64,000 bases of DNA, from positions 61,420 through 125,419 of the forward strand of contig CAZUDE010000002.1 of the NCBI GenBank assembly GCA_964619205.1, read 5' to 3'. This DNA is from an uncultured Desulfobacula sp. (lineage in GTDB: Bacteria; Desulfobacterota; Desulfobacteria; Desulfobacterales; Desulfobacteraceae). This document shows, in pieces, positions 15,717 through 40,627 of this stretch (the stretch's first letter is position 1; every line of letters starts with the position of its first letter). Position numbers and translations under genes: made by a program. A model generated the notes under the pieces. It saw nothing but the letters and a program-made list of their open reading frames with translations. It was not told where the DNA came from and made no database searches.

Positions 15717-17735
15717 ATGAAAACAGTTGGGAAATTTTTAGCAGTCATATTATTTTTAATGATCCTTCCCATGGGTCTTGTTTCAGCTGAAGAAAAAAAA
15801 CAGCAGAGCCAGATCTTTGATCTCGGGGAGGTACTGATCATGGACAAAGGGGATGAGATCAACAGTATCACCACGACAGAGACGGTATCGATGGAGGATA
15901 TTGAAATGCAGGGGGCCCAGACCGCTGCAGACGCCTTGGAAATGATTCCGGGGATTGATGTCATGACCACTGGCAAGAACCAGTCAAGTATCAGGCTCAG
16001 GGGCTTTGATCAAAAACAGGTTAGAGTCCTGATTGACGGTGTTCCTGCCCATGAATCCTATGACGGATCCCTGGCTCTGGATATGATCCCCGTGGATTCC
16101 ATTGCCAGGATAAAAATCATCAAAGGTGCTTCATCCGTTCTTTACGGCCCCAATACCCTGGGCGGGGTCATTAACATCATCACTAAAAAAGGCGGTGAAA
16201 AACCTTATACCAGTCTGATAACATCATTCGGGCCCAATGATACCCAGAATTATATTGTCAACCACGGTGCGTCAAAGGGAAACTGGAATTACTGGGTTAC
16301 GGCAAGCCGCAGAAAATCGGGCGGGTATGACCTTTCCGATGATTTTGATAAAAACAACACACGGACAGGCCTGGGAACCGATTATAATGAGGACGGGGGT
16401 GTCAGGGATTTAAGCTATTATACAAAGAATACCTTTAATTCAAAAATCGGGTATGAGTATGATGCCACGTCAAAACTCTATCTGTCCTTTGATTATCATG
16501 AGAATGAAAAAGGCATCCCCACAATGCAGAAAAGATACTGGGAGTTTACCAACTGGGACCAGTGGCAGCTGAGTCTGGCAGGGGAGCATGATTTTACAGA
16601 CATCCTGTCCCTGAAGGCCAGGGTATATTATGTGGATCACGACGACAGCATTGAAGATATCGGCGGCTGGGATGCAAGCCATACCACTCCCGTGTCAAGA
16701 AAATGGTTTGAACGAAGCTCCTATGAGGACTATACCCTTGGCGGAGAAGTCCAGGCATATCTGGATTTCGGGGATGTGAGTCTTTTAAAGATGGGTCTTA
16801 ATTATATGAAAGATAATCATCAGGAGCAGGATTATCTTGATGCCACGTGCAGAGAAGTTGCCGGAGCTCCTTTTTATCCAGTGGGATACCGGCCTTTGAA
16901 AGAATTTGAAGCTGATGTTTATTCCTTTGGCATCGAAGATGAGGTTAAACTGACCAAACAGCTGACCCTGAATGCAGGGGTGAGTTATGATGTCTATAAA
17001 CCGGTTAAAAATTATTTTAATTATGTCCGTGATGATATTAAGACCTGGAACCCCCAGACAGGAGTGTCCTTTGATGTGACCGAGAATTTTAACCTGTATG
17101 CGTCAGTCGGTAAAAAGACAAGATTTCCACAGTTAAAAGAGCTTTACAGCGTTGTTGCCGGTGGAAACGCCAGCCTGAAGCATGAAGAAAATATAGCCTA
17201 TGAAATCGGAGCAAAAAAAAGATTCAACAAGATATTTGATATGTCTGTAGCTGCTTTTTTTAATGATATTGAAAATAGAATCGATCGGCAAGGCAGTGCG
17301 TATTTGAATAAATTTGAAACTGAAATCAAAGGGATTGAAACCCAGTTGAACATCACAACACCCTGGAACCTGGATGCTGCATTGAGTTATACATTTATTT
17401 CTTCAGAGGAAAAGGCCACGGCTTCGAGCACTGTGACAGATGCCGCAAACGTTCCCGGCCGAAAGGCAAGCCTTGATTTGAGGTATGCCTTTGATTTTGG
17501 GCTCACAGCATCTTTTCAGGCCATTTATACATCAGATCAGCTCGATACCTACGCTGTCAGGTACAAGGAATTTACTGTCTGCAATGCCAGGCTGAATCAG
17601 GCCATTCCCATTTTTGAAAAGGTTTCCACAGACCTTTTTCTGGAATTTTCCAATATTTTTGATGAAAATTATGAAGAAGGATGGGGCCCGACTCCGGGGA
17701 GAAGTTTTCTGGCCGGCATGAAATTCAGTTTTTAA
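15717..17735 (+). CDS. TonB-dependent outer-membrane receptor
   Basis: Signal peptide; plug motifs IRLRGFDQKQVRVLIDGVP and IKIIKGASSVLYGPNTLGGVINIITKK; C-terminal PGRSFLAGMKFSF ending in Phe. Confidence 0.96.
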   Translation: MKTVGKFLAVILFLMILPMGLVSAEEKKQQSQIFDLGEVLIMDKGDEINSITTTETVSMEDIEMQGAQTAADALEMIPGIDVMTTGKNQSSIRLRGFDQKQVRVLIDGVPAHESYDGSLALDMIPVDSIARIKIIKGASSVLYGPNTLGGVINIITKKGGEKPYTSLITSFGPNDTQNYIVNHGASKGNWNYWVTASRRKSGGYDLSDDFDKNNTRTGLGTDYNEDGGVRDLSYYTKNTFNSKIGYEYDATSKLYLSFDYHENEKGIPTMQKRYWEFTNWDQWQLSLAGEHDFTDILSLKARVYYVDHDDSIEDIGGWDASHTTPVSRKWFERSSYEDYTLGGEVQAYLDFGDVSLLKMGLNYMKDNHQEQDYLDATCREVAGAPFYPVGYRPLKEFEADVYSFGIEDEVKLTKQLTLNAGVSYDVYKPVKNYFNYVRDDIKTWNPQTGVSFDVTENFNLYASVGKKTRFPQLKELYSVVAGGNASLKHEENIAYEIGAKKRFNKIFDMSVAAFFNDIENRIDRQGSAYLNKFETEIKGIETQLNITTPWNLDAALSYTFISSEEKATASSTVTDAANVPGRKASLDLRYAFDFGLTASFQAIYTSDQLDTYAVRYKEFTVCNARLNQAIPIFEKVSTDLFLEFSNIFDENYEEGWGPTPGRSFLAGMKFSF

Positions 17736-17798: not shown

Positions 17799-18932
17799 AT
17801 GACCAAGGCATTAAAAATGACAAAATCAAAAATTTTATGGTCTCTTTTCTGTGTCATCATCTTTGCTTTTCTTTTCAGGGTTTATCTTGTTCATGAATCG
17901 AAAAATAAGGAAATTCCGGGCAAAACCCGCACCGTTACAGACATGAAGGACCGCACCTTTGAGGTGAAAGATCCCATAAACCGGATTGCTCTTTTAGGTG
18001 GCCCCACAGGCCAGATTGCATTTATCCTGGGAATCCAGGATCGTCTTTGCGCCGTGACCAATACCCTTAAAATGTCGCCCCTGGTCAGGGAAATGTATTT
18101 AAAGATCAAAGATCTTCCGGGGCCCCGGACCACATCGGGCAGTATCAACATTGAAGAACTCATCCGGTCAAATCCGGATATTGCCGTGGCAGGTGATATT
18201 GACGGCAATATCGTTCTTGAAAAAACCCGTATCCCCGTGGCCTTTCTCTCAGACAGTATGGGGGAAGGCCTTGTGGATATCAAAAAGGAAGTCCTGTTTT
18301 ACGGGTATCTGTTCAATGCAAAGGACAGGGCGGAAAAATATGTTAAATTTCTGGACCGGGTCACCGGTCTGGTGAGGCAAAGGACTAAGGACATCCCAAA
18401 AGATGCCAAGAAGACTGTTTTCCAGGGCTATAACCCCAGTCACCTTGTGACCCTGGGCGGAGACACCTTCATGCAGGAGCATATTGAACTTGCAGGCTGC
18501 TTGAATGCGGCGGAAACCATCACCACCCTGGGCGCACAGACCGGTCTTCATTCAGGGCTCGGCGAAGTGTCCATGGAACAGGTGCTGGACTGGAATCCGG
18601 ATATCCTGGTGATTAATTACGGGACATCTGATGACCTTTATACTGACCCCCAGTGGAATAAGATCAAGGCGGTGCAGGACCAACAGATTTTTTTTCAACC
18701 CGCCGGGATTTTTATTTTCAACCGGCCCACGGCAGAGTCGGCCGTTATTTTTCCTTTATGGCTGGCAAGCACGGCTTATCCGGACAGGTTTCAAGACCTT
18801 TGTATAAACTGTATTGTGAAGGAATTTTACAAGGAGATCCTCGGGTTTGATCTCAATGACGATCAGGTCAGGGGTATTCTTCTGGGGACCTATGAATTAA
18901 AAATGATGAAGGGGATCAGCCATAAAGGATAG
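17799..18932 (+). CDS. Fe/B12-type ABC substrate-binding protein (set 1)
   Basis: TVTDMKDRTFEV, NIEELIRSNPDI, VSMEQVLDWNPDIL. Confidence 0.9.
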   Translation: MTKALKMTKSKILWSLFCVIIFAFLFRVYLVHESKNKEIPGKTRTVTDMKDRTFEVKDPINRIALLGGPTGQIAFILGIQDRLCAVTNTLKMSPLVREMYLKIKDLPGPRTTSGSINIEELIRSNPDIAVAGDIDGNIVLEKTRIPVAFLSDSMGEGLVDIKKEVLFYGYLFNAKDRAEKYVKFLDRVTGLVRQRTKDIPKDAKKTVFQGYNPSHLVTLGGDTFMQEHIELAGCLNAAETITTLGAQTGLHSGLGEVSMEQVLDWNPDILVINYGTSDDLYTDPQWNKIKAVQDQQIFFQPAGIFIFNRPTAESAVIFPLWLASTAYPDRFQDLCINCIVKEFYKEILGFDLNDDQVRGILLGTYELKMMKGISHKG

Positions 18933-18993
18933 AGTCCGACATATCCAGGGAAGGTCCAACGCCTTCCTGCCGGAAACCTGGATCAGGATTTTT

Positions 18994-19965
18994 ATGTTTG
19001 TCCTTGTCCTGGTTGTAGTTTCATCCCTAAGCCTTGGCCGGGTGAATATTCCTTTTTTCCAGACGCTGAAGATCCTTTTTTCCCCTGTGTTTTCCCTGGA
19101 ACCGGACTGGTCCTCAACCACTTATTCAGTGGTCATGGATGTGAGACTGCCGCGGGTTCTGGCCGGAGTCCTTGTTGGGGCTGCGCTTTCCATATCCGGT
19201 GCATCTTTCCAGGGAGTGTTCCAGAACCCCCTGGTAAGCCCGCATATCCTGGGGGTGGCCTCGGGGGCCGGGTTCGGGGCAGCCCTGGCCATTCTTTTTT
19301 TTGACAATCTCTTCCTGATTTATTTTACCTCTTTTATATTCGGTCTGGCATCAGTGGCCATGACCTATGCCCTTTCAAGGGTGTATAAAATGACCCCGGT
19401 TCTTATGCTGGTCCTGTCCGGAATTGTGGTGGGGTCTTTGTTTTCAGCTTTGACATCGCTTCTGAAATATATTGCCGACCCCATGAACAAAATGCCGGCC
19501 ATTGTGTTCTGGCTTCTGGGATCGCTGAATCATGTGTCGTTTAGAAATCTTCTGATCACTGCGCCCCTCTTTATTATCTGCATTGCCGTCCTGCTTATGG
19601 TCAGATGGCAGATCAACCTTTTGTCCATGGGAGAAGAGGATGCAAAATCCCTGGGGGTAAACACCGAAACCCTGAAAGTCCTTATTATTGTCAGCGCCAC
19701 CATTGCAACGGCATCCGCCGTCTGCATCAGCGGCATCATAGGCTGGATCGGCATCATGATCCCCCACATCGGCCGGCTCATTGTGGGCCCTGATCATAAA
19801 TACCTGCTTCCCATTTCCATGGTCATCGGCGCTGCCTATCTTGTGGCTGTGGATACCATTGCCAGGACCGCACTTGCCACGGAGATTCCCATCGGAATAC
19901 TGACGGCGATTTTCGGGGCGCCCGTATTTGCTTTTTTACTCAGAAAAAGCCAGGGAGCTGCCTGA
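18994..19965 (+). CDS. FecCD/BtuC-family ABC permease (set 1)
   Basis: VRLPRVLAGVLVGAALSISGASFQGVFQNPLVSPHILGV, IGWIGIMIPHIGR. Confidence 0.95.
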   Translation: MFVLVLVVVSSLSLGRVNIPFFQTLKILFSPVFSLEPDWSSTTYSVVMDVRLPRVLAGVLVGAALSISGASFQGVFQNPLVSPHILGVASGAGFGAALAILFFDNLFLIYFTSFIFGLASVAMTYALSRVYKMTPVLMLVLSGIVVGSLFSALTSLLKYIADPMNKMPAIVFWLLGSLNHVSFRNLLITAPLFIICIAVLLMVRWQINLLSMGEEDAKSLGVNTETLKVLIIVSATIATASAVCISGIIGWIGIMIPHIGRLIVGPDHKYLLPISMVIGAAYLVAVDTIARTALATEIPIGILTAIFGAPVFAFLLRKSQGAA

Positions 19966-19968
19966 ACC

Positions 19969-20781
19969 ATGATTGGCCGGATCGACATACGCCATCTTTC
20001 CTTTGGGTATTCGGATCAAAAAGAAGACGCTGTCTTTACCAATATTACGATGTCCCTTGAACCGGGGCAGGTTTTCTGTCTTCTGGGGCCCAATGGATCA
20101 GGCAAATCCACCCTGCTCAAATGCATTACAAGGCTCTTGAAACCTGCCAGGGGAATGGTGACCATTGACGGAGAAAATATTACGGCATCAAGTTCAAACA
20201 AGATAGCAAAGAAACTGGGCTATGTCCCCCAGAGTCTTGTTTCGGCATTCCCGTTTACCGTGGAGGAAATCGTGGTCATGGGAAGAGCATCAAAAATCAG
20301 CATGATCTCTTCGCCTTCAAAAAAGGATCAGGACAAAGCCCGGGAATCCATGGAAAGGATCGGCATTGCCCATTTGGCGAGGCGTCCATGCAACAGGCTT
20401 TCAGGGGGGGAATGGCAGCTGGTCCTGATTGCCAGGGCCCTGACCCAGTCACCAAGGGTGCTGCTTTTGGATGAACCCACCTCCCACCTGGATCTGGGCA
20501 ACCAGGTGAAAATCCTGGAGGTGGTCAATACGCTGTCCAGGGACGGCATCACCATTATCATGGCCTCCCATTTCCCGGATCATGCATTTTTAAACGCTGA
20601 CCAGGTCGGTATCCTGAAAGGCGGGTCCATGAAGACCCTGGGAAACCCGGACAAGGTGTTGACCGAAGAGGTTCTTTTTTCCACCTATGGTATCCGGATC
20701 AGGGTCATAGAGATGTTTGAAGGGATTAACAGGAAGGTCTGTGTCCCGGTCTTAAAACAAGGCATAAAGGGAAATCCTTGA
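19969..20781 (+). CDS. FecE/BtuD-type ABC ATP-binding protein (set 1)
   Basis: GPNGSGKS, LSGGEWQLVLIARAL, LLDEPTSHLD. Confidence 0.95.
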   Translation: MIGRIDIRHLSFGYSDQKEDAVFTNITMSLEPGQVFCLLGPNGSGKSTLLKCITRLLKPARGMVTIDGENITASSSNKIAKKLGYVPQSLVSAFPFTVEEIVVMGRASKISMISSPSKKDQDKARESMERIGIAHLARRPCNRLSGGEWQLVLIARALTQSPRVLLLDEPTSHLDLGNQVKILEVVNTLSRDGITIIMASHFPDHAFLNADQVGILKGGSMKTLGNPDKVLTEEVLFSTYGIRIRVIEMFEGINRKVCVPVLKQGIKGNP

Positions 20782-20920: not shown

Positions 20921-20987
20921 CCCAGGAAAAGGGCGGATATTTATGGCCCACGGGCAACAGATCAGCGTTTATATAGTGGGAGGTATT

Positions 20988-22016
20988 ATGAAAACAACTA
21001 AAATTCTATGGATGGGGCTGTCCATCGGTCTTGGGGTTTGTTTTTTTTATGGGTGTGATTTTATCTCACAAAAACAGGCACAAACCCGGACCATCACCGA
21101 CCAGATGGGAAGAGAGGTGACCATCCCCAAACACCCCAAAAAAATTGCAGCCCTTCATCATTTTGGCGGAAAAATCATGTATGCCCTGGGCCGGCAGGAT
21201 TTCTTGGCAGATCAAAGCATCTACGGCAAAGAAGCCGAGGCCAGGCATAAAATCGATCCGGTCTTTGCGGCCCTGCCGAAAATCATCGAATCCCACGGGT
21301 ATAATGTGGAAGGCCTGGTCAGCCTGAACCCTGAAATCATCTTTGCCTATGCATCCATGGACAAACTGGAAATGGACCAGTTTGAAAATTCCGGAATCCC
21401 GGTGGTGGCCATAAAAGGGGAAACCCTGGAAGAAAGTTATACCGCCATCCGGCTGGTATCGGATGTGATGAATTGTAAAGAAAGGGGTGAATTTTATATC
21501 AAGGCCTGTCAGGATCTTGTGAATATGGTGCAAAGCCGCCTTGAAAGTCATGTGGAAAAACCCCTGGCCGTCATGTTTGCAGGGCCCAGGAGCATTTTTT
21601 CCGTTGCCACGGGCAATATGCTGCAGAACCAGATCCTGAACCTGTCCGGCGCATTCAATGTGGCACGGGAATTAAGCGGGTTCTGGGCAAATGTGTCGCC
21701 GGAGCAGATTGCAAAATGGAACCCGGATGTAATTTTTTTGGGCTCCTATCTGGATGTTTACGGCAAGGACAAAATCCTTGAAAATCCCCAGTTCCAGACC
21801 GTTACCGCCATAAAGGAAAAAAAGATTTTTACCTTTCCCTCCAATATCGGGTGGTGGGATTACCCGGCTCCCCATTGCGTCCTGGGTGTGGTCTGGTGCG
21901 CCAAAACCATTTATCCGGATCTTTTTGCCGATATCGACATGATGGCCGTGGCCAATGAATTCTACAAACAATTTGTGGGGTATACATTTGAAGAAATGGG
22001 AGGCAGGCTGGATTGA
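20988..22016 (+). CDS. Fe/B12-type ABC substrate-binding lipoprotein (set 2)
   Basis: Lipobox-like FYGC, TITDQMGREVTIPKHPKKI, VSPEQIAKWNPDVI; GGAGG RBS before 20988. Confidence 0.92.
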   Translation: MKTTKILWMGLSIGLGVCFFYGCDFISQKQAQTRTITDQMGREVTIPKHPKKIAALHHFGGKIMYALGRQDFLADQSIYGKEAEARHKIDPVFAALPKIIESHGYNVEGLVSLNPEIIFAYASMDKLEMDQFENSGIPVVAIKGETLEESYTAIRLVSDVMNCKERGEFYIKACQDLVNMVQSRLESHVEKPLAVMFAGPRSIFSVATGNMLQNQILNLSGAFNVARELSGFWANVSPEQIAKWNPDVIFLGSYLDVYGKDKILENPQFQTVTAIKEKKIFTFPSNIGWWDYPAPHCVLGVVWCAKTIYPDLFADIDMMAVANEFYKQFVGYTFEEMGGRLD

Positions 22017-23026
22017 AAAAAATTCTGATCACAGGCGGGCTGGTTTTCCCAGTGGTTTTATTCATCTGCCTCAGCATCGGCCGGTATCCCATTGAACCGG
22101 GCCGGGTGGCCGGGCTCCTCTTGGCTCCCTTTGGCATTGAAAATCGGCTTTTTGAAGCCCCCATGGATATGATGATGATTTTCTGGAATGTCCGGGTGCC
22201 GAGGATTATTCTAAGCATTTTTGTGGGAGCCGGGATTTCCACTGCAGGGGCTGTGTTCCAGGCCCTTTTCAGAAACCCGCTGGCTGCCCCGGATATCCTT
22301 GGGGTAACCTTTGGCTCGGGTTTTGGCGCAGCCCTGGCCATCATGTTTTTTGCCCCTGTTGCCCTGGTGATCCAGACCAGTGCCTTTGCCTTTGGGATCA
22401 CAGCGGTCACCCTGGCCTATATCCTGGCATCCCTGAGCCGTGACAGCTCCCCTTCGGTCCTGGTCATCTCCGGGATTGTGATTTCCGCGATATTCCAGGC
22501 CGGGCTTTCTTTTATCATGTATATTGCCAACCCCTATGACCAGCTGGCCCAGATTGTGTTCTGGACCATGGGCAGTTTTAATACCGCGTCCTGGATCAAG
22601 GTTGGGGCAACCGTGCCCCTGCTCTTGCCCGGCATTATGCTCATCATGATTTTTTCCTGGCGGCTGAACATCATGACCCAGGGAGAGGAAGATGCCGGGT
22701 CCATGGGCATCCATGTGGTGAGATGGCGGTACTTTTATGTCATCGTCAGCACCCTCATGGTGGCCTCTTCCGTGGCAAATGTGGGGAATGTGGCCTGGAT
22801 CGGGCTCATCGTACCCCATATTGCCAGGTATCTTGCCGGGTCTGAACACCGAAGACTCATCCCCATGACAGCCATGCTGGGGGGATTGTTTCTCATGGTC
22901 ATGGATACGGTGGCAAGAAGCGTCATGCTTTCTGAAATCCCCATCAGTATTGTCACCTCCATATTCGGCGCTCCCTTCTTAGGGTATCTGGTGGTCAGCG
23001 CCGGGAAAGCAAGGGTGTTTTCATGA
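22013..23026 (+). CDS. FecCD-family ABC permease (set 2)
   Basis: VRVPRIILS, QALFRNPLAAPDILGV, WIGLIVPHIAR. Confidence 0.95.
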   Translation: MKKILITGGLVFPVVLFICLSIGRYPIEPGRVAGLLLAPFGIENRLFEAPMDMMMIFWNVRVPRIILSIFVGAGISTAGAVFQALFRNPLAAPDILGVTFGSGFGAALAIMFFAPVALVIQTSAFAFGITAVTLAYILASLSRDSSPSVLVISGIVISAIFQAGLSFIMYIANPYDQLAQIVFWTMGSFNTASWIKVGATVPLLLPGIMLIMIFSWRLNIMTQGEEDAGSMGIHVVRWRYFYVIVSTLMVASSVANVGNVAWIGLIVPHIARYLAGSEHRRLIPMTAMLGGLFLMVMDTVARSVMLSEIPISIVTSIFGAPFLGYLVVSAGKARVFS

Positions 23027-23811
23027 ATCTCAGAGTTGAAAATATCAGTGCGGGATACGGCAAGAACCCTGTGATTTCCCTTGTCAACCTCACCGTGGCA
23101 CCGGGCAGGATCTGCGCCCTCATGGGCCGGAACGGGTCGGGCAAAACCACCCTGCTCCGCTGCATCAACGGGCTTTTGCCTTCCAGTGAAGGCAGGATCA
23201 TCCTCATGGGCCGGGATATAAAAAAACTCAGCCGGGACAAGATTGCAAGGATGGTGGGTGTTGTCCCCCAGGTGAGCGTTACCCCGTTCTCCTTTTCATG
23301 CCTTGACATGGTCCTGATGGCTGGGGCGGCCCGGATCAAAGCCTGGTCAGCTCCGTCAAAAAGAGACCACCAAAAAGCCCTGGGCGCCATGGCGGAAACC
23401 GGGATAGACCATATGGCAAAGAGGGCCTTTAATACCCTTTCCGGCGGGGAGAGGCAATTGGTCATGCTGGCCAGGGGGCTGTTCCAGGACACGCCCATCA
23501 TGCTCCTGGACGAGCCCAATTCCCATCTTGATTTTGCCAACCAGCATAAAATCATGGCCCTGATGCAGCGGCTTGCCAGAAAACGGAACATGACGGTTCT
23601 CATTACCCTGCATGACCCGAACCTGGCCCATTATTACTGTGATGATGCCATCCTTATCCACCAGGGCAGGGTCCGGGCCGCAGGAGAGATTGGTGTGACC
23701 CTGACCAACGAGGTCCTGTCCTGTGTTCTGGGGGATGATATTGAATGCGATGTAACAAAAAAAGGAGTGTTTGTGGCGATTCCCAAACAGATCCCTCAAA
23801 ATATGAATTAA
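23023..23811 (+). CDS. FecE-type ABC ATP-binding protein (set 2)
   Basis: GRNGSGKT, LSGGERQLVMLARGL, LLDEPNSHLD, HDPNLA. Confidence 0.95.
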   Translation: MNLRVENISAGYGKNPVISLVNLTVAPGRICALMGRNGSGKTTLLRCINGLLPSSEGRIILMGRDIKKLSRDKIARMVGVVPQVSVTPFSFSCLDMVLMAGAARIKAWSAPSKRDHQKALGAMAETGIDHMAKRAFNTLSGGERQLVMLARGLFQDTPIMLLDEPNSHLDFANQHKIMALMQRLARKRNMTVLITLHDPNLAHYYCDDAILIHQGRVRAAGEIGVTLTNEVLSCVLGDDIECDVTKKGVFVAIPKQIPQNMN

Positions 23812-24834: not shown

Positions 24835-26007
24835 ATGAGTCTCGCCATAATTGATGCAAGGCAGTGGCAGAACCGGTTTGACCTTGAATCAGGCCGGCCC
24901 ATGGATTCGGATCATCCAATGGCCGCCATGATCAGCAAGGTCCTAAGCTGGAACCCATACCCCGGCGACATGGATGAAAAAGCCAATGAATGGGTAACCC
25001 GGACAGCTCTGGACCTGGTCGAGAAATATGAGCCCGGCCTGGTCTGTTTAAGCTATGTCCACCAGTTTTTCAGCCATCGCCATTTTGCCCATTCAAAAGA
25101 GGACTGGGAAAAGATGTGTGAAACTGTCATGGCAGAAGCACAAAAATTTATCCATCTATCCGGCTATACCCCGGTCATTATCGGCACCGGTGCCATGATT
25201 CCCTTAAAGGGCGAAATGAATCTTTCAGGCATGGACGGGCTGGCCATATCTTCCAACTGGTCGGCCCGGTATTGCGGGGTTCACCAGCCAAGCCCGGCCG
25301 ATATGGAATTGCTCCATGGGTTTGTGGCAGAGGGAAAGATTGAACGCATTGTAACCAAGGATGAATGGATCGATCTTTTCAGATCAGAACAGCCGGATAT
25401 AAAAATTCATCAGGATGAAGCGCTCATGCCTGACTTCCTGGTTGTTTCCAACGAGGGATATGCCTTCAAGACCATGGGAACGACCCTGAGAAAGCCTGTG
25501 AATATTCCTGAAAATAATTTCAACATCCCTGTGTATACCCGTCTGGGCAATCTTGATGATCTAAGGGGAATCAAACAATTGGTTCGGTCAAACCTTGAAC
25601 ATCACAAGATTGCCCTGATCCTTGTGGAAGGAGTTGGAAAAGAGTTTTTTCCGGCTGATCACTCCCTGTGCAGAAACGGCTGCGGCTGGTTCTGTAACGA
25701 ACCGGGAGATGCTTTTTACCTGACCCTTTCCACAGGAAAACACGAACCTTTTGCCTACCCGGCAGGATGCCGGTCCTTTGACCGGGATGCGGAAACCATA
25801 AAATTTCCTTTTTCAGGCTATATGCTCTCCATCCCGGAAAACACCCTGGCACAGGATTATCCGGGAAAAAGCATTGCCGTTGGGAACCGGAGCATGTTCA
25901 TGCACATGATGTTCGGCGTGGACATGAGTATTGAATGTTTTGCCCGGAACCTGTTCAACCAGGGATGCCTGGGCGTGATTCACAGGATGGGTAAATATGG
26001 GAAATAA
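24835..26007 (+). CDS. Hypothetical protein translationally coupled to the radical SAM gene (weak alkaline-phosphatase/phosphodiesterase-superfamily resemblance)
   Basis: About 390-aa ORF with GGAG RBS, operon-packed; ANEWVTRTALDLVEKYEPGLVCLSY only loosely recalls PhnA/NPP segments. Confidence 0.7.
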   Translation: MSLAIIDARQWQNRFDLESGRPMDSDHPMAAMISKVLSWNPYPGDMDEKANEWVTRTALDLVEKYEPGLVCLSYVHQFFSHRHFAHSKEDWEKMCETVMAEAQKFIHLSGYTPVIIGTGAMIPLKGEMNLSGMDGLAISSNWSARYCGVHQPSPADMELLHGFVAEGKIERIVTKDEWIDLFRSEQPDIKIHQDEALMPDFLVVSNEGYAFKTMGTTLRKPVNIPENNFNIPVYTRLGNLDDLRGIKQLVRSNLEHHKIALILVEGVGKEFFPADHSLCRNGCGWFCNEPGDAFYLTLSTGKHEPFAYPAGCRSFDRDAETIKFPFSGYMLSIPENTLAQDYPGKSIAVGNRSMFMHMMFGVDMSIECFARNLFNQGCLGVIHRMGKYGK

Positions 26008-26035
26008 ATTTAACCATGAAGGCCATGAGGAAAAG

Positions 26036-26698
26036 ATGGGTTTCAGGACTAATATTTTTTTCGGGGTGATTTTTGGTGTTGTCTTTTTGTTCTGCTGTTC
26101 CCCGGTTTTTGCAGACAGGAATGAAAAGATGGCCGCGCTTGAAACAAGAATTGCAGCCTATATTCTTGATAAACAGCATAAAGAGGATTTCTATGCCCTG
26201 GCCGTTGTCAAAAGCGCCCTTGAATCCATCAGGGAAGGGTCCGGCGGCATCGGCGCCTGCCTTTTGGACGGCAGCACGGGAAAAATCGTTGAATATGGCC
26301 GGAACCGACAGCACTCCCCGTATTTTCGCAGTGATCTGCACGCTGAAATGGATCTGCTCAATAAATATGAAGACCGGGCAAAAAAGATGAATGATCCAAA
26401 AAATTTAAACAAAACACGGGAATGCAAAGATCTGGTTCTGGTCACTTCAGTGGAGCCCTGTCCCATGTGCCTGACCCGCATCATCAATTCCGGGATTAAA
26501 ACGGTGCTCTATGTGGTGGAGGATAAGGAAGGGGGTATGATCACCCGCCTGGACAACCTGCCGCCGTTCTGGCGGGAATTTGCTTCGGATCGGGAATTTC
26601 GGCCGGCCGATTGTTCTGCCGAACTAAAGCAGATCGCCATAGACCTGTTTAATTTTTCCAGCCGGAGTTTTGCAAAAAAACAGAGGGAAAAACAATGA
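26036..26698 (+). CDS. Zinc-dependent nucleoside/nucleotide deaminase with predicted signal peptide
   Basis: HAEMDLL and VEPCPMC motifs; N-terminus MGFRTNIFFGVIFGVVFLFCCSPVFA-DR. Confidence 0.88.
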   Translation: MGFRTNIFFGVIFGVVFLFCCSPVFADRNEKMAALETRIAAYILDKQHKEDFYALAVVKSALESIREGSGGIGACLLDGSTGKIVEYGRNRQHSPYFRSDLHAEMDLLNKYEDRAKKMNDPKNLNKTRECKDLVLVTSVEPCPMCLTRIINSGIKTVLYVVEDKEGGMITRLDNLPPFWREFASDREFRPADCSAELKQIAIDLFNFSSRSFAKKQREKQ

Positions 26699-26768: not shown

Positions 26769-26912
26769 ATGTGTGACTGCAAATGCCAACACCCGGATAA
26801 GTTAAAAGACAAGCCTGAAAACTGTACACCCCGGCAGATTGAAGAATGCCATGGGAAAACAGGGGAGCATGCCTGTACCTGCGAGTCTGAAAAAGAGAAA
26901 AAAACAGAATAG
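26769..26912 (+). CDS. 47-aa Cys/His-rich mini-protein (metal-binding candidate)
   Basis: AAGGAG RBS; MCDCKCQHPDKLKDKPENCTPRQIEECHGKTGEHACTCESEKEKKTE has 7 Cys and 3 His. Confidence 0.7.
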   Translation: MCDCKCQHPDKLKDKPENCTPRQIEECHGKTGEHACTCESEKEKKTE

Positions 26913-26935: not shown

Positions 26936-27598
26936 ATGCCGGTTGATAATCCGTATTTAGAAGATGAAGAAGATAAAAAAGCAGCCATGGAAATGGATGA
27001 AATCGTTAAAACCATATTTGCCCCGATTTATCCTGAGATTGCCGGGCAGATCAAATCCATGCACAAGATTACCACCGGCATTTGCATCGACCTGGGTGCA
27101 GGTCCGGGAGCCCTTTCCATTTGCCTTGCAAAGATCACGGACCTTCACCTGTATGCAGTGGACAAATCACCCCACGCATTTTCCATCGCCACCCAAAATA
27201 TTAAGGATGCAGGCCTGGATGACCGGATCACCCCGGTGAAATCCGATATCGTCAACATGCCCTTTGAGAACAATTTTGCAGACCTCATGATCTCACGGGG
27301 GTCTATTTTTTTCTGGCAGGATATGGCAGGTGCATTTAAAGAAATCTACCGGGTCTTGAAACCCGGAGGGGAAACCCATATCGGCGGAGGATTCGGCACA
27401 TCGGAATTGAAAAAAGCCATTTTTGAAGAAATGGCGCAAAGAAAGGACGGGTTTGAAGACCGGAGCAAAAAGCGGGGAAGCCCGGAAAATATGAAGCGCA
27501 TCAAAGAGGCCCTGGATGAAACCCTTCCCGGTCAATACAGGATGACGCAGTCGGATATCGGGTTCTGGATTTATATCACAAAGGAAAAGGCCTCATGA
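26936..27598 (+). CDS. Class I SAM-dependent methyltransferase
   Basis: CIDLGAGPG motif I, MPFENNFADL, YRVLKPGG. Confidence 0.92.
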   Translation: MPVDNPYLEDEEDKKAAMEMDEIVKTIFAPIYPEIAGQIKSMHKITTGICIDLGAGPGALSICLAKITDLHLYAVDKSPHAFSIATQNIKDAGLDDRITPVKSDIVNMPFENNFADLMISRGSIFFWQDMAGAFKEIYRVLKPGGETHIGGGFGTSELKKAIFEEMAQRKDGFEDRSKKRGSPENMKRIKEALDETLPGQYRMTQSDIGFWIYITKEKAS

Positions 27599-29337
27599 AA
27601 TGCGGGATATGCGAGATCGGCTGTCACCTTGAGGAAAATGGATATGGCAAATGCCGGATGATCACCCTCAGGGGAGGGGTGTTTATGGAACGGTATCCGG
27701 ACAGCTGGTCCACCATGTTCCCCATTTCCATAGAAACCCTGCCAACCCTGCATTTTTATCCCAGCCATAAATTTTTGCAGGTGTCTTCCATGGGATGCAA
27801 TTTTTCCTGTTCCGGGTGTATTTCAGAAATGCTGACCCTGGGGACTGAAACCATTTATAAGACCTTAAAGACGCTGCCGCCTGAAAAAGTCATTGAAAAG
27901 GCTGTAAAAGAAAACTGCAAGGGAATTGCTTTTTGCATCAATGATCCCACGGTTTCTTTTTATTCGTTTTTAAAATTGGCCCGGGCGGCAAAAGAAAAGA
28001 ACCTGTTGGTGGGATTTTCAACCAACGGGTATTTTACCAGTCAGGCCCTTGAAGCCCTGATCCCCTTTACGGATTTTGTAAATATCGGGTTTAAGGGGTT
28101 TTCCGACAAAGCTTATCAATCCTGCGGAGTCCCTTCGTCAGCACCGGTTTTCAGGAATATGAAAAGGCTGTTTGACGCAGGGATTCATTTGGAGGCTGCC
28201 GTCATCCACTTAAAAGGGCGGGAAGAGGATGTCGTCCGCATTGCCGGGTTTGTTTCCTCCCTGTCGCCTGATATCCCTTTCCAGGTCATGCGGTTTGTCC
28301 CTTTTGGTGAAGCAGAGATTGAATTTGAACCCACCATCCGGGAATCCGAATCCCTTTGTGGCGGGTTGAGCAAAACCCTGACCCATGTGTATCTGTTTAA
28401 TTCCCCCGGCTCGGATCTGTTAAATACCCTGTGCCCGGTCTGCGGGAAAACCGTCATCACCCGGGAGTTCTTCGGACCCATGGGAGCAAGAATTGTGGAT
28501 CATGGGATCGATGTCCGGTGTGTTTGCGGCAGCCGCCCCATGATCAAAGGGGAGGTGGCTGAAACCCGGTATGATGAACATGGTTTTTTTGGCGGGTACC
28601 GAACCACCCGGGCCTTTGAAATGCTCCAGGCGATTCTCACCTGCATGGGTGCGGATGACCCTGAAAAAATACCGGAACTTTGGTTTGACATCATGGAGAC
28701 CGATTATCTCAAAGAATTCCATGAAACGGTTCATCTGCCGGAAGCTTATGGTAACATCATTGATCTTCTGGCTCGAAAAACCGGTTGCGAAAAAGCCGGA
28801 GACCGGCTGAAAACCTTTATCAACCAGACCCTGTCCCATATCCGGTTAAGGGCCTGTTCTGCAGACCGGCCAAAGGTCTACTATGCCATGGGCTATCCCT
28901 TGTTTGCCCTGAATGCGGAACGCTTTGAAACCAACCTGGTGGAGGCGGCCGGCGGGAACTGCCTGAACAAGCAGTTGACCAGAAAAGGAAAACCAGGGGT
29001 CTCCATCACGCGGGAAGAATTGATGCGGATGAACCCGGATTTTATTTTTATTTCCGGTTTTTTGTCCTGCCCGGTGTCTGATTTTTATGATTATTGTATT
29101 CGCCATGATATTCTCGTGAATGCAGTGAAAAACAACCGGATCTATGACCATTTTCCCCTATGGGATTTTGGCAGCCCGAGATGGGTTCTGGGCCTCATGC
29201 ACATTGCCAATACCCTTCACCCGGAAATTTTTGAGTTTGACATAAAAAAAGAAGCAGATGCATTTTACACTGAGTTTTTTAAACAGCCCTTTAATCAGAA
29301 AACCGCCAACAGATCTTTTTACAGAGTCTCAAGATGA
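27595..29337 (+). CDS. Radical SAM enzyme (AmmeMemoRadiSam-like) fused to a periplasmic-binding-protein-like C-terminal lobe
   Basis: GCNFSCSGC and TLCPVCG; C-terminal third (VEAAGG..ITREELMRMNPDFIF..AVKNNRIY..WDFGSPRWVLG..HPEIF) parallels the C-lobe of the locus SBPs; no signal peptide. Confidence 0.85.
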   Translation: MKCGICEIGCHLEENGYGKCRMITLRGGVFMERYPDSWSTMFPISIETLPTLHFYPSHKFLQVSSMGCNFSCSGCISEMLTLGTETIYKTLKTLPPEKVIEKAVKENCKGIAFCINDPTVSFYSFLKLARAAKEKNLLVGFSTNGYFTSQALEALIPFTDFVNIGFKGFSDKAYQSCGVPSSAPVFRNMKRLFDAGIHLEAAVIHLKGREEDVVRIAGFVSSLSPDIPFQVMRFVPFGEAEIEFEPTIRESESLCGGLSKTLTHVYLFNSPGSDLLNTLCPVCGKTVITREFFGPMGARIVDHGIDVRCVCGSRPMIKGEVAETRYDEHGFFGGYRTTRAFEMLQAILTCMGADDPEKIPELWFDIMETDYLKEFHETVHLPEAYGNIIDLLARKTGCEKAGDRLKTFINQTLSHIRLRACSADRPKVYYAMGYPLFALNAERFETNLVEAAGGNCLNKQLTRKGKPGVSITREELMRMNPDFIFISGFLSCPVSDFYDYCIRHDILVNAVKNNRIYDHFPLWDFGSPRWVLGLMHIANTLHPEIFEFDIKKEADAFYTEFFKQPFNQKTANRSFYRVSR

Positions 29338-36791: not shown

Positions 36792-36823
36792 ATGGTTATA
36801 ATTGGTTAATATTAATCATCATT
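36792..36823. promoter_or_regulatory. Shared 22-bp motif (copy 2) plus Fur-box-like site in the divergent promoter before the exbBD-tonB operon
   Basis: ATGGTTATAATTGGTTAATATT (19/22 vs 15513-15534); 36805-36823 matches the Fur consensus at 14/19; TTGACA at 36835. Confidence 0.5.
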
Positions 36824-37230: not shown

Positions 37231-38855
37231 AGAATTTATTTAAAACGGATCTTTTGTTTCAGATTCTCATAATAACAGCCCTGTGTATCCTGTCGAGCCC
37301 TTCTGCATGGGCGGATAAACGCACGGAAAAAGACCTGGACAAGGATGGCCGGATAGACCAGGTCTTGATTTATAGTGATGCCGGGGTCATTTTGAGGGCT
37401 GAATCCGACAAGGACCAGGACGGGTTTTTTGAAACCCTCCAGGAGTATCAGGAGGGAAAACTTGTCAAAATTGAAAGGGATACGGATAACGACAGAAAAA
37501 TAGACAGTATTGATTATATTGAAAATGAGAAACGAATCCGACAGGAAAAATTTGACCCCAACGGGAGCCTAATTCAGGTTTCATTTTTTGATGAAGCCGG
37601 TCAGGTTACCCAGATGAAAAAAGATACCACCGGGGATAAAAAATTCGATACCCTGTACCTGTTTAAAGCCGGAGCGCTTTCATCATCCACGAAAGATACC
37701 AATGGCAACGGCAAACCAAATGTCTTCTGCATTTATAAAAACCAAATGCCCATGGAACAGAAAATAGATGACAATGAAGACGGCGTCATGGATCGCCTTT
37801 TTTTCTTTGATGCAGAAGGTGAACTTGAAAAGATTTATAAGGAACCTTTTTCAAAAGAGAAATACAGAGTAACGGTTTTTTTTGAAAAAGGCGAGATCAA
37901 ATCCCAGGAACGGGATACCAATGAAGATGGAAAAGCCGATGACATCACCCGGTATATCAAAGGGGTTCCCTCTGAAAAGAAAAAAGACAGCAATTTTGAC
38001 GGTCGGTTTGATGCATTTACCGGGTTTGTCAATAATCTTCCCAAAACCCTGGAAAAAGATACGGATTTTGATGGAAAAATAGATTATTTTGCTGAGTTTG
38101 ACGACAGGGGAGAGGTTTTAACAATCCGTGAAGACACAAATGGAAATGGAAAAATCGACCGCATCCGGCATTTTCGGTCAGGCAGCCTTTACAGGATTGA
38201 GCAGGACGGCAATGATGATGGTTTTTTTGAAACCGTGTCAGTGCTGGAAAATAATAAAATGGTAAAGAATCTCATTGATAAGAATCAGGATGGCAAGGTG
38301 GATATGGAGGTTTTTTTCAATTCAAACCAGGAAAAGACGCGCCTGATAAGTGATGCGGATTTTGACGGATATTTTGAAACTACCCAGGTCTATGATAATC
38401 CTTTATGGACCGTTATTGTGTCTCTGGATATTGACAGAGATAAATATGTCGATGTCCGGTCCTTTTACAAGGATACGGTTTTAAGACAAAAAGAAATCGA
38501 TGAAGATTCAGACGGTGTCGTGGATGTTGTGGAAGTTTATAATCAAAAAGGGGAACTTGAAACAGTTGAAGAAAAAAAATCCGGGAAGAATTTCCTGACT
38601 TGGTTTTATGGTAATGGCGAAGTCCTTATTCGAGGGGAAGAAGATAGGAACCAGGATGGTAAAACCGAGATCTGGTATTTTTATGAAAACGGAAAATTAA
38701 AAACCGTGCAGGAAGATACCAATTTTGATGGAAAGCCGGACCTGTGGGAAGATTATGATGAAATTGAAGCGCTTGTAAAACGGGCAAAGGATCTGGATTT
38801 TGACGGAACCCCTGATTTTACAGATGTTGTTGGAAACGCTGAAAAAGACAGTTGA
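37227..38855 (+). CDS. Exported tandem-repeat protein with about 21 units carrying Dx[DN]xDG (Ca-binding-loop-like) motifs
   Basis: Signal peptide ending SAWA; repeat period about 24-25 aa, e.g. DLDKDGRIDQ, DSNFDGRFDA, DTNGNGKIDR, DLDFDGTPDF. Confidence 0.85.
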   Translation: MKNLFKTDLLFQILIITALCILSSPSAWADKRTEKDLDKDGRIDQVLIYSDAGVILRAESDKDQDGFFETLQEYQEGKLVKIERDTDNDRKIDSIDYIENEKRIRQEKFDPNGSLIQVSFFDEAGQVTQMKKDTTGDKKFDTLYLFKAGALSSSTKDTNGNGKPNVFCIYKNQMPMEQKIDDNEDGVMDRLFFFDAEGELEKIYKEPFSKEKYRVTVFFEKGEIKSQERDTNEDGKADDITRYIKGVPSEKKKDSNFDGRFDAFTGFVNNLPKTLEKDTDFDGKIDYFAEFDDRGEVLTIREDTNGNGKIDRIRHFRSGSLYRIEQDGNDDGFFETVSVLENNKMVKNLIDKNQDGKVDMEVFFNSNQEKTRLISDADFDGYFETTQVYDNPLWTVIVSLDIDRDKYVDVRSFYKDTVLRQKEIDEDSDGVVDVVEVYNQKGELETVEEKKSGKNFLTWFYGNGEVLIRGEEDRNQDGKTEIWYFYENGKLKTVQEDTNFDGKPDLWEDYDEIEALVKRAKDLDFDGTPDFTDVVGNAEKDS

Positions 38856-38871
38856 TCATGTGGAGAAAATT

Positions 38872-39483
38872 ATGCTGGAATTATTATCAAAAGGCGGGGT
38901 TCTGGTTATCCCCATTGTATTTTGTTCGGTCCTGGTCGTTGCAATTTTTTGTGAACGGATGATCCGTTATACCATTAACCGCAGCCGGGGAAAAGATATA
39001 GAAATCAAAGTGGCGGAATTGATAAAAGATGGGGATTCTGAAGCTGCGCTGAAGGCTTCCAAACAGAGCGGTTCTCCCATGGGAAGGGTTCTGGAAAAGG
39101 CCATAGAAGCAAAAGATCTTGATAATGAGGTGCTTGAATCCGTGATTGTGAATGCAACTGAGAATGAAGTCAGGGATCTGTCTTCATATCTTCAAGCCCT
39201 GGCCACCATTGGTAATATCGCCCCCCTCCTGGGTCTTCTGGGAACTATTTTCGGTATGATCAAAGCCTTTATGGTGATTCAGGAAATGGGCGGCAAGGTC
39301 AATGCGGCGGTTCTTGCCGGAGGTATCTGGGAAGCCATGCTGACAACGGCGCTGGGGCTTGTTGTGGCCTTGCCTACGATGGTGGCGCACAGCTATCTTC
39401 TGTCAAAGGTGGACCAGTATGAGGCAAGGCTTCAAAACGGATCGGTTCTTTTTTTGAAGGCAATTGCCAAAAAGGCGGTATGA
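38872..39483 (+). CDS. exbB: ExbB/TolQ/MotA proton-channel protein
   Basis: IGNIAPLLGLLGTIFGMIKAF, GGIWEAMLTTALGLVVALP. Confidence 0.93.
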   Translation: MLELLSKGGVLVIPIVFCSVLVVAIFCERMIRYTINRSRGKDIEIKVAELIKDGDSEAALKASKQSGSPMGRVLEKAIEAKDLDNEVLESVIVNATENEVRDLSSYLQALATIGNIAPLLGLLGTIFGMIKAFMVIQEMGGKVNAAVLAGGIWEAMLTTALGLVVALPTMVAHSYLLSKVDQYEARLQNGSVLFLKAIAKKAV

Positions 39484-39484
39484 C

Positions 39485-39892
39485 ATGCTTTCGTTCAAAA
39501 GAAACAAAGATCGATACCAGATGCAATCCCCCTTGACTTCATTGATAGATATTGTCTTTCTGCTCCTGATTTATTTTCTTTTGACCACCAATTTCCTGGT
39601 GGAAGAGGGCATCACCATCAAACTTCCCGATGCCAGGGCATCCGCACCCCAGATAAGGCAGGAAATCACGGTTACGGTGGATCAAGACGGAAACGCCTAT
39701 ATGGCGGATAAGGAAGTCCCCCTGGACCGGTTATATGCCAGGATTAAGGAAATGATAGGCAATGACAAGGACCGGCTGGTGATTATCAAGGCAGATAAAA
39801 CAGTGATTCTGAACAAGGCGGTCAGGGTTATGGATATTGCCAAGGCTGCCGGTGCCTCAAGACTCAGCCTGGCAACGGAAAAAGGACTTTAG
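39485..39892 (+). CDS. exbD: ExbD/TolR biopolymer transporter
   Basis: PLTSLIDIVFLLLIYF, IKLPDA, IKADK, VRVMDIAKAAG. Confidence 0.93.
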   Translation: MLSFKRNKDRYQMQSPLTSLIDIVFLLLIYFLLTTNFLVEEGITIKLPDARASAPQIRQEITVTVDQDGNAYMADKEVPLDRLYARIKEMIGNDKDRLVIIKADKTVILNKAVRVMDIAKAAGASRLSLATEKGL

Positions 39893-39901
39893 GTGGGACC
39901 C

Positions 39902-40597: not shown

Positions 40598-40627
40598 CAA
40601 AAATGCATTACAAAATCGAGGAGGCTG

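Follow-up and report, generated by a model that had tools for sequence, protein, structure and literature searches.

What half of a periplasmic binding protein does on an enzyme inside the cell is the question raised by the fusion gene of this locus. In the window, i.e., the whole stretch of 64,000 nucleotides analysed here, the gene lies downstream of a TonB-dependent receptor and two ABC importer gene sets, and a second uptake unit follows (Table 1). According to the original prediction, made from the sequence alone, a radical SAM enzyme has domesticated a lobe of a substrate-binding protein (SBP), either to capture the ligand that the ABC systems deliver or to dock on the permease.

That the fusion is real is indicated concordantly by profile searches, local sequence comparison, and structure modelling. 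The Pfam profiles Radical_SAM (PF04055; aa 66-206, 48.7 bits against a gathering score of 29.5) and Peripla_BP_2 (PF01497; aa 373-518, 34.4 bits against 27.5) both match above their cut-offs, the latter through positions 92-230 of its 235, which is the C-terminal half only. The last ~190 amino acids had been proposed to parallel the C-lobes of the local SBPs. In BLASTP searches this holds for SBP3, the closest local relative of the fused lobe (fusion aa 379-568 with SBP3 aa 147-342, 26% identity, E 3e-15), and for SBP2 (fusion aa 447-568 with SBP2 aa 217-351, 28% identity, E 6e-11), in whose alignment all three of the motif pairs originally quoted are present, but not for SBP1, whose similarity to the fusion is not significant. 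At the sequence level the lobe also matches PDB entry 4hn9 (E 1e-8). In the AlphaFold2 model (pLDDT 91.2, pTM 0.91), the C-terminal half is matched by Foldseek to class III SBPs, namely 4hn9 (E 8e-12), 4pag, 4ovk, CeuE, BtuF, IsdE, and ShuT. The N-terminal half is matched to pyruvate formate-lyase (PFL) activase (3c8f, 3cb8, and 8fo0; target TM 0.72-0.76), and further matches of the radical SAM part include QueE, NifB, and MoaA, which have the partial TIM-barrel fold.

The predicted lack of a signal peptide is borne out, as the highest 19-residue Kyte-Doolittle mean in the protein is only 1.10 and no membrane segment is present. By the same measure SBP1 and SBP3 possess hydrophobic N-termini (2.37 and 2.59, respectively), and that of SBP2 is weaker (1.53). 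The N-terminus of the fusion is formed by an invariant cysteine motif and is not hydrophobic; thus, it carries neither the export signal nor the lipoprotein anchor of a class III SBP, and in place of two lobes the model shows a long helix and a single lobe. Because it has no hydrophobic segment, the fusion is assigned to the cytoplasm. As judged from sequence and model, it is a cytoplasmic radical SAM enzyme composed of a PFL-activase/AmmeMemoRadiSam-like module (aa 1-311) and an SBP backbone helix with its C-lobe (aa ~380-565).

Several parts of the enzyme module are strictly conserved. The N-terminal CX2CX3CX9C motif, which lies inside the part matching TIGR04337 and is common to the fusion and the stand-alone paralogue (33% identity with fusion aa 1-300, E 2e-48), is probably an auxiliary metal or Fe-S site. 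In addition to the cluster motif, C108 and C177 of the radical SAM core are invariant, and the model places the CxxC...CxC ribbon on two β-hairpins. The stretch GGYRTTRAFEM had been taken for a plain linker, a description that does not fit the wider family: G333, G334, and Y335 are invariant across every subfamily examined, although model confidence is lower at this motif, and it is the cysteine ribbon and the helical segment that separate the barrel from the SBP-derived part.

Table 1. Features of the fusion protein and of its genomic surroundings (window coordinates; aa, residues of the fusion protein)
Feature	Position	Strand	Remarks
TonB-dependent outer-membrane receptor	15717..17735	+	head of the gene string
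ABC importer set 1	17799..20781	+	SBP1 17799-18932, FecCD permease 18994-19965, ATPase 19969-20781
ABC importer set 2	20943..23811	+	SBP2 20943-22016, FecCD permease 22013-23026, ATPase 23023-23811
Stand-alone radical SAM paralogue, 362 aa	23745..24833	+	same Cys motifs, no SBP lobe
Accessory genes	24835..26698	+	Desulfobacterales-type loci only; conserved hypothetical 24835-26004, zinc deaminase-fold 25997-26698
Small Cys/His-rich ORF, 47 aa	26769..26912	+	directly precedes the methyltransferase gene
Class I SAM methyltransferase, 220 aa	26936..27598	+	orthologue of M. maripaludis MMP1179 (PDB 3DLC, E 1e-65)
Fusion gene, 580 aa	27595..29337	+	radical SAM module and class III SBP half-domain (Pfam, model, Foldseek)
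N-terminal CX2CX3CX9C motif (C3, C6, C10, C20)	27601..27654	+	invariant in 46/46 sequences
Radical SAM partial-barrel core, aa ~61-268	27775..28398	+	Pfam, model, Foldseek
CX3CX2C cluster motif (C68/C72/C75)	27796-27819	+	invariant in 46/46 sequences
CxxC...CxC ribbon (C280, C283, C309, C311), aa 280-311	28432..28527	+	kept in 44-45/46 sequences
GGYRxxR motif (aa 333-339), then four-helix connecting segment (aa 337-396, ~60 residues)	28591..28782	+
SBP-derived part: backbone helix aa 399-420, α/β C-lobe aa 423-562	28789..29280	+
Second uptake unit	38800..43476	+	ExbB, ExbD, TonB, SBP3 (40628-41686), FecCD permease, ATPase

In a motif scan, relatives of the fusion turned up in the genomes of 267 species; the best 80 of these are mostly methanogens or ANME archaea, together with Desulfobacterales and Spirochaetota. 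Bacterial and archaeal members are 46-55% identical over their full length and have 86 invariant positions. On this sequence evidence the fusion is ancient and constrained and not local to the window. No published characterisation of this combination of a radical SAM enzyme and half an SBP was found in a literature search. The family is conserved in methanogens and sulfate reducers, is uncharacterised in the literature found, and is usually set in metal-chelate import operons.

Within an alignment of 46 sequences, mean identity is 64% in the C-lobe core (aa 423-545), 56% in the radical SAM core, and 26% in the backbone helix, so by sequence identity the C-lobe core is the most strongly constrained part of the protein. 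Its invariant residues comprise YYxMGxPLF (429-437), R443 and E445, GKPG (465-468), SGF (487-489), C501, and WDFGSPRW (523-530). In the model they are located in loops after β-strands, the side on which the lobes of class III SBPs face their ligand. Throughout the subfamily the motifs do not vary; distant subfamilies of the same architecture have others in their place yet keep the radical SAM invariants. Such a pattern is expected of specificity-determining residues, and the loop motifs, at the level of sequence, fit a specificity pocket. The idea that the domesticated lobe captures a ligand agrees with this pattern; that ligand could be imported cargo, a biosynthetic intermediate, or a cofactor.

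The methyltransferase gene immediately precedes the fusion gene in 77 of 84 related loci, and in the window the two genes share the sequence ATGA, in which the stop of the former overlaps the start of the latter. The methyltransferase, as the most constant partner, had no place in the original interpretation. The proposed link between transport and radical chemistry is upheld by synteny: within 10 kb of the fusion gene, an SBP is encoded in 71/84, a FecCD permease in 66/84, and an ABC ATPase in 70/84 of the loci. The typical archaeal order, found in several genera, is SBP-methyltransferase-fusion-FecCD-ATPase, and in Methanosarcina, Methanococcoides, and Methanohalophilus the fusion gene stands between the SBP and permease genes of one operon. 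The SBPs that accompany archaeal fusions resemble SBP1, which belongs to another type than the SBPs nearest to the fused lobe. Some family members (loci L165, L116, and L091) have no importer within 7-10 kb, and some adjoin DUF364 and two or three methyltransferases, a setting that looks biosynthetic. In the Desulfobacterales-type loci, the conserved hypothetical protein among the accessory gene products was considered as a second binding domain and rejected, as it bears no similarity to the lobe; it has no Pfam or PDB sequence match, and its fairly confident model gave no significant Foldseek match in the PDB.

Clues to the cargo come from the surroundings of the transport genes. Haem was rejected as cargo, since the TonB-dependent receptor lacks the FRAP/NPNL motifs; its best NCBIfam match is a haemin receptor family, well below the cut-off and barely above siderophore and B12 models. 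The best Fur-box-like sequence of the window (15529-15547, 15/19 matches) lies ~190 nt upstream of the receptor gene; 0.23 sites of that quality are expected per window. As the Fur consensus was not found at the equivalent position in 12 related bacterial loci, Fur regulation was retained solely as a weak hint. The genes sufCB are situated ~5 kb from the cassette in M. burtonii and ~9 kb from it in M. maripaludis; together with the Fur-like site, this proximity points weakly to iron. No metal-specific regulators were seen beside the archaeal cassettes.

Taken together, these observations suggest the following mechanism, which is tentatively preferred and given a little less than an even chance: a ligand of chelate type, the one handled by the transporter, is brought to the radical SAM site by the lobe, and its modification is completed by the methyltransferase. 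Three elements of this mechanism are inferred, namely small-molecule binding by the lobe, the identity of the bound molecule with the cargo of the transporter, and the chemistry. In particular, the SBP-derived lobe would act as the small-molecule recognition module of the enzyme and would hold the chelate-type ligand of the adjacent FecCD-type importer at the mouth of the radical SAM barrel, where the 5'-deoxyadenosyl radical would activate a C-H bond of the held ligand. Methylation of this molecule, by the co-translated class I methyltransferase of the MMP1179 type, would precede or follow the radical step. The net effect would be an oxygen-independent tailoring or breakdown of the imported chelate, which in strict anaerobes could free or redirect the metal, possibly iron.

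A rather unlikely but serious alternative is that the cassette makes the chelator rather than processing it. In this case, the fusion and the methyltransferase(s), sometimes with DUF364, would build a metallophore-like molecule, e.g., from SAM-derived units, the importer would retrieve the metal-loaded product, and the lobe would bind an intermediate or the product. In siderophore loci, the genes that make a chelator lie, as a rule, beside those for its uptake. Moreover, distant subfamilies occur in the arrangements DUF364/DUF4213-fusion-three methyltransferases (L116) and Opp/Nik-type importer-methyltransferase-methyltransferase-DUF364-fusion (L108), and DUF364 belongs to the cassette itself in D. 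toluolica, ANME-1, and Methanolliviera. A methylated SAM is turned into a methyl-azetidine carboxylate by the one DUF364 enzyme characterised so far, and DUF364 is reported to co-occur with cobalamin-dependent radical SAM C-methylases (PMC12930334, a paper of 2026). However, DUF364 is found in just 3/84 loci, the canonical cassette of the subfamily has two enzymes, few for a pathway, and no exporter was seen in the Pfam-annotated loci, in which exporters were not searched for systematically. The same co-occurrence with cobalamin-dependent methylases could also be read in favour of a cofactor-holding lobe, an improbable option in which a BtuF-like half-domain holds a corrinoid supplied by a BtuFCD-like importer, and the fusion is a new cobamide-dependent radical SAM methylase. 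The constant proximity of methyltransferases is in line with this option, as are the BtuF structures 5ysc and 1n2z among the Foldseek matches (E 4e-8 to 8e-7). The host organisms are, moreover, rich in corrinoids. Nevertheless, SBPs with ligands other than B12 give the best matches in both sequence and fold (the BtuF model scores only 11.6 bits), the canonical B12-binding domain (PF02310) is not reported by Pfam at E values up to 1, and no cobalamin or other riboswitch was detected at gathering score in the window or in seven related bacterial loci. Furthermore, a cofactor common to the subfamilies would be expected to keep the residues of the putative pocket the same, yet these differ from one subfamily to another.

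The other half of the original prediction, in which the lobe would bind no ligand and would instead attach the enzyme to the transporter (or would persist as a structural remnant), is very unlikely. The position of the fusion gene between SBP and permease genes in several archaea would suit such a docking or regulatory module. However, the surface on which SBP lobes dock is on the periplasmic side of the permease, out of reach of a cytoplasmic protein, and the lobe is retained where no FecCD importer is nearby or where the importer belongs to a different family (Opp/Nik-type). Residue E450, the presumed counterpart of the docking glutamate of BtuF, varies among the 46 sequences (30 have E, nine T, four Q, one D, and one A, and one has a gap), and the invariant loop motifs argue for a functional site. 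There is still less reason to expect a protein or peptide substrate, with the fusion acting as the activase of a glycyl-radical enzyme or as a maturase of the small Cys-rich peptide. Among solved structures, PFL activase is indeed the nearest in fold, and the 47-aa ORF, two genes upstream of the fusion gene, is conserved in Desulfobacula-type loci, a very similar ORF occupying the same place in D. toluolica. Yet it was detected only in loci of this type and not in archaeal cassettes, no glycyl-radical enzyme occurs in the annotated neighbourhoods, and the curated cut-offs of the glycyl-radical activase models (TIGR02494, TIGR02493, and relatives), 174-232 bits, are far above the 21-22 bits that the fusion reaches.

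The preferred reading, in which an imported chelate is processed, has a broader form that covers synthesis as well: radical SAM chemistry may have gained a new kind of substrate-recognition (or macrocycle-holding) domain from half of a periplasmic binding protein, and the resulting enzyme, with the MMP1179-type methyltransferase, may constitute an undescribed oxygen-independent route by which the chelates of the importer are processed or made. In this full form the proposal is rather unlikely. To our knowledge, little is established on how methanogens and other strict anaerobes gain access to the iron, nickel, and cobalt of chelates after these have entered the cell. If the proposal is true, the pair would close a gap in the trace-metal acquisition of methanogens, ANME archaea, and sulfate reducers. 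A conserved two-gene enzyme pair, often embedded in an importer operon, offers a handle on intracellular chelate use. Experimental material is at hand in the partner structure 3DLC and in the genetically tractable hosts M. maripaludis and M. acetivorans. In addition, a defined family could be set apart from under the names 'radical SAM protein' and 'pyruvate formate-lyase-activating enzyme', the only ones that its several hundred proteins bear at present.

Among known systems, the class III SBPs (cluster A, BtuF/FhuD/ShuT/CeuE-type, Peripla_BP_2), which serve type II ABC importers, have the backbone helix and the α/β C-lobe in common with the fusion, as well as the W-D-aromatic...P-R loop motif typical of this SBP subgroup. 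Unlike them, the fusion is a cytoplasmic, enzyme-linked protein with neither N-lobe nor signal peptide. The periplasmic SBPs of the same loci are also much less conserved, being ~30% identical to the SBPs of the window, whereas the whole fusion reaches ~49%. The AmmeMemoRadiSam enzymes of TIGR04337 align with fusion aa 1-310, including the N-terminal cysteine motif and the cysteine ribbon. However, the fusion (99.1 bits) and its stand-alone paralogue (140.8 bits) both score below the 220-bit cut-off, and the ORFs of the window that were searched with Pfam include no AMMECR1 or Memo gene. From both TIGR04337 and PFL activase (PDB 3C8F/3CB8), its best solved fold match, the fusion differs by an extra C-terminal region of 270 residues, and it lacks the glycyl-radical enzyme partner of the latter. 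The partner methyltransferase is represented by the structural-genomics protein MMP1179, for which a large substrate cavity is the one feature mentioned in the literature (PMC5289526). The fusion orthologue of M. maripaludis, CAF30736.1, is most likely the product of the gene after MMP1179 (MMP1180), as suggested by accession numbering and by the identical methyltransferase-fusion order in strain L001; that of M. acetivorans is Q8THI2.

With regard to chemistry, ChuW and HutW are anaerobic haem-degrading radical SAM methyltransferases encoded in haem-uptake loci, and they offer an analogy only: an oxygen-independent radical SAM step and a methyl transfer on an imported chelate, encoded beside TonB and ABC genes. 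ChuW is a HemN-like single protein without an SBP-derived domain. Here, in contrast, haem motifs are absent from the receptor, and the methyl transfer would fall to a separate class I enzyme. The class B cobalamin-dependent methylases (Mmp10) and the BnvC/DUF364 pair combine a radical SAM core with a separate macrocycle-binding domain and have in common with the fusion a link to methylation and, in some fusion loci, to DUF364; the fusion differs from the class B enzymes in having no canonical B12-binding domain and in a lobe pocket that varies between subfamilies. The accessory domains of radical SAM enzymes include SPASM, RRE, and B12-binding domains, and, if the proposed role is correct, the SBP lobe would join them.

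The protein encoded directly downstream of the methyltransferase gene, a 580-residue fusion, joins a radical SAM module to half of a class III substrate-binding protein (SBP), as the original prediction had held. The ATG of the fusion gene and the TGA of the methyltransferase gene share bases (ATGA), and a purine-rich stretch comes before this start codon. Both Pfam domains exceed their gathering scores: Radical_SAM at aa 66-206 and Peripla_BP_2 at aa 373-518, the latter covering only profile positions 92-230 of 235. Solved structures matched by sequence (4hn9, 4pag, H. pylori CeuE, 4ovk, and 2etv) are all class III binding proteins and align with the C-terminal part only. In BLASTP, the proposed likeness to the SBPs of the locus holds for SBP3 (aa 379-568, E 3e-15) and for SBP2 (aa 447-568, E 6e-11), whose alignment reproduces the motif pairs first noticed, but not for SBP1, which shows no significant similarity. 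An AlphaFold2 model built from 46 homologues is confident overall (pLDDT 91.2, pTM 0.91); searched with Foldseek, its C-terminal half has the class III SBP fold (best E 8e-12), and its N-terminal half matches pyruvate formate-lyase activase (target TM 0.72-0.76), followed by QueE, NifB, SuiB, and MoaA. The high pTM indicates a fixed arrangement of the two predicted halves. In NCBIfam, aa 1-310 align with the AmmeMemoRadiSam radical SAM model, but they score 99 bits where the cut-off is 220; thus, the fusion is a relative, not a member, of those enzymes. The expected absence of a signal peptide agrees with hydropathy, which reveals no hydrophobic segment in the fusion (19-residue maximum 1.10); the N-termini of SBP1 and SBP3 are clearly hydrophobic, and that of SBP2 is less so.

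The 46 full-length homologues share 86 invariant positions. Among these are C3, C6, C10, and C20 right at the N-terminus; C68/C72/C75 (the cluster motif), C108, and C177 in the radical SAM part; G333-G334-Y335-R336, R339, and H376 between the modules; and Y430, M432, P435, F437, R443, E445, G465-K466-P467-G468, S487-G488, C501, W523-D524-F525-G526, and W530 in the SBP-derived lobe. A Cys ribbon (C280/C283/C309/C311) is near-invariant. The segment originally called a linker does not deserve the name: with G333 to R336 and R339 invariant, few motifs of the protein are better conserved, and a helical segment of 60 residues separates it from the SBP backbone helix. A database copy (P0001, 550 aa) appears to begin approx. 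30 codons 3' of 27595 (window 27595-27684), which would remove the invariant N-terminal Cys motif; conservation supports 27595 as the probable start. In the model, the lobe invariants sit in loops after strands 427-431, 468-470, 483-486, and 516-518; in class III SBP lobes, this is the face that binds the ligand.

Fusion proteins of this type are a family, not a local accident, and the architecture is real, ancient, and strongly selected. A protein search returned 290 relatives; among the best 120, nearly all are approx. 580 residues long, the Desulfobacula toluolica protein is 74% identical, methanogen proteins (Methanococcus maripaludis, Methanosarcina, Methanococcoides, Methanotorris, Methanoculleus, Methanofollis) are 46-55% identical, and the sole names are 'radical SAM protein' and 'pyruvate formate-lyase-activating enzyme'. 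In a motif scan limited to one genome per species, 267 species genomes contained relatives, the nearest (79%) being in a Desulfobacula genome; the best 80 belong to Methanomicrobiales, Methanosarcinales, ANME-1, Methanolliviera, Desulfobacterales/Desulfatiglandales, and Spirochaetota. Searching 1.8 billion cluster representatives with the lobe alone yielded further such fusions with lobes just 26-35% identical and, beyond them, mostly ordinary SBPs of 330-370 residues. In three distant fusions tested with Pfam, the radical SAM domain was found in all; for the SBP half, one had a match over the cut-off, one a match under it, and the third none. The literature search found no published work on the family; the domain pair is already present in precomputed Pfam annotations, which means that the architecture had been seen before, though not studied.

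The fusion gene ends a plus-strand gene string: a TonB-dependent receptor; SBP1, permease, and ATPase; SBP2, permease, and ATPase; a stand-alone radical SAM protein, a hypothetical protein, a deaminase-fold protein, a small Cys-rich ORF, the methyltransferase, and the fusion. A second unit 9 kb downstream encodes ExbB, ExbD, TonB, SBP3, permease, and ATPase. A methyltransferase gene lies immediately upstream of the fusion gene in 77 of 84 related loci; SBP genes occur in 71, FecCD permeases in 66, and ABC ATPases in 70; among the other loci are several short contigs. The recurrent archaeal order is SBP-methyltransferase-fusion-permease-ATPase; Methanotorris has SBP-permease-ATPase, two methyltransferases, the fusion, and then a second importer, and Methanofollis the methyltransferase-fusion pair alone. 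The fusion is tied to its partner methyltransferase and, in the window's subfamily, also to type II ABC import. The stand-alone radical SAM, hypothetical, and deaminase genes are confined to Desulfobacula-type loci; the enzyme encoded by the first is paralogous to residues 1-300 of the fusion (33% identity, E 2e-48). In Methanoculleus loci and similar metagenome contigs (L039, L041, L112, L117, L118, L122), two different fusion paralogues lie face to face, one after SBP-methyltransferase and the other after FecCD-ATPase, so that both seem to serve a single importer.

Positions of features in the window and in two related loci
Feature	Position	Strand	Remarks
Efflux set (OEP, HlyD, ATPase, MacB/FtsX; MacAB/TolC type) and MoxR-DUF58-transglutaminase trio	817-5559 and 7820-12166	+	Upstream; efflux set ~10 kb from uptake genes
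Fur-box-like site	15529-15547		Upstream of receptor gene; 15/19 matches
SBP1	17799-18932	+	
SBP2	20943-22016	+	
Hypothetical protein, 390 aa	24835-26004	+	ORF listed from 24727; homologues back 24835
47-aa ORF	26769-26912	+	8 Cys, 3 His (MCDCKCQHPDKLKDKPENCTPRQIEECHGKTGEHACTCE...)
Methyltransferase	26936-27598	+	
Fusion	27595-29337	+	
Multihaem c-type cytochrome	29258/29342-31615	+	Start likely 29342, 5 nt past fusion stop
Fur-box-like site	36805-36823		Upstream of second TonB-related string; 14/19 matches
SBP3	40628-41686		
Xanthine-dehydrogenase-family molybdoenzyme cluster	47748-54528	-	No evident link to fusion
L116, distant subfamily	5970-12570		Archaeal metagenome contig
L108, distant subfamily	161-9716		Archaeal metagenome contig

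The hypothetical protein, encoded between the stand-alone radical SAM and deaminase genes, has approx. 400 homologues, the named ones all from Desulfobacterota and all called hypothetical; it has no sequence match in Pfam or the PDB, and Foldseek found nothing significant in the PDB (best E 0.18) for its fairly confident AlphaFold model (pLDDT 81.5, pTM 0.86). The 47-aa ORF, just upstream of the methyltransferase gene, has no Pfam match and could be a metal-binding or precursor peptide; a closely similar ORF (at 9171-9341 in locus L002) is found at the equivalent site in D. toluolica and two Desulfobacula MAGs. The cytochrome has a multi-span hydrophobic region at its C-terminus, and its gene, directly behind the fusion gene in the window, also comes after the fusion in three Desulfobacula loci (L005, L006, L008). 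The molybdoenzyme cluster encodes a large subunit, an FAD subunit, a MobA-like nucleotidyltransferase with an HD domain, a MoCF_biosynth-domain protein, and a histidine phosphatase.

The original prediction proposed that the lobe captures a ligand or docks on the permease. The lobe is constrained more than the catalytic core: compared with the window protein, homologues are on average 64% identical in the lobe core (aa 423-545), 56% in the radical SAM core, and 26% in the backbone helix. It is also far more constrained than the periplasmic SBPs encoded at these loci; between the window and archaeal loci, identity is 49% for the fusion, 53% for the permease, 45% for the ATPase, 43% for the methyltransferase, and 30% for the SBPs. 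Distant subfamilies keep every radical SAM feature (N-terminal Cys motif, Cys ribbon, GGY), and in them the lobe loop motifs WDFGSPRW, GKPG, SGF, and C501 give way to other sequences; residues fixed in orthologues and different in paralogues have the look of a specificity pocket. Moreover, some distant subfamilies retain the lobe away from FecCD importers: L116 has DUF364/DUF4213-fusion-three methyltransferases, and L108 has an Opp/Nik-type importer, two methyltransferases, DUF364, and the fusion, the methyltransferases of both being class I. The lobe is thus not a FecCD-docking device, and docking is unlikely. E450, presumably at the position of the docking glutamate of BtuF, varies among the 46 homologues, which is a lead only. 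Together, these patterns favour a role in binding a small molecule next to the radical SAM site. A protein substrate is also unlikely, since every glycyl-radical activase model of NCBIfam falls far under its cut-off on the fusion.

Several clues point to a metal chelate as the ligand: the importer type (FecCD/BtuCD family, class III SBPs, TonB-dependent receptor); the solved SBPs closest to the lobe, which are 'iron' SBPs of unknown ligand and the Ni-histidine CeuE; the best Fur-box-like site in the window, upstream of the receptor gene (0.23 expected per window); and sufCB genes at a distance of approx. 5 kb in M. burtonii and approx. 9 kb in M. maripaludis. Three weaker Fur-box-like sites occur, including that upstream of the second TonB-related string; both tabulated sites are weak and are not reproduced in related loci. 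Haem is not favoured, as the receptor lacks FRAP/NPNL motifs. A cobamide is not favoured, because no cobalamin riboswitch was found in eight bacterial loci (the window and seven others) and the best matches do not include BtuF. The first DUF364 enzyme to be characterised turns a C-methylated SAM into a methyl-azetidine carboxylate by cyclisation and occurs together with radical SAM C-methylases (PMC12930334); the recurrence of DUF364 beside fusions keeps two other readings alive. Metallophore biosynthesis is possible but doubtful, and a lobe that holds a corrinoid is quite improbable.

The mechanism we tentatively prefer is that the SBP-derived lobe would present the importer's chelate-type ligand to the radical SAM site and that the partner methyltransferase would methylate it. 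The latter is an orthologue of MMP1179 (PDB 3DLC, E 1e-65), whose structure contains bound SAM and whose substrate cavity is described as unusually large (PMC5289526).
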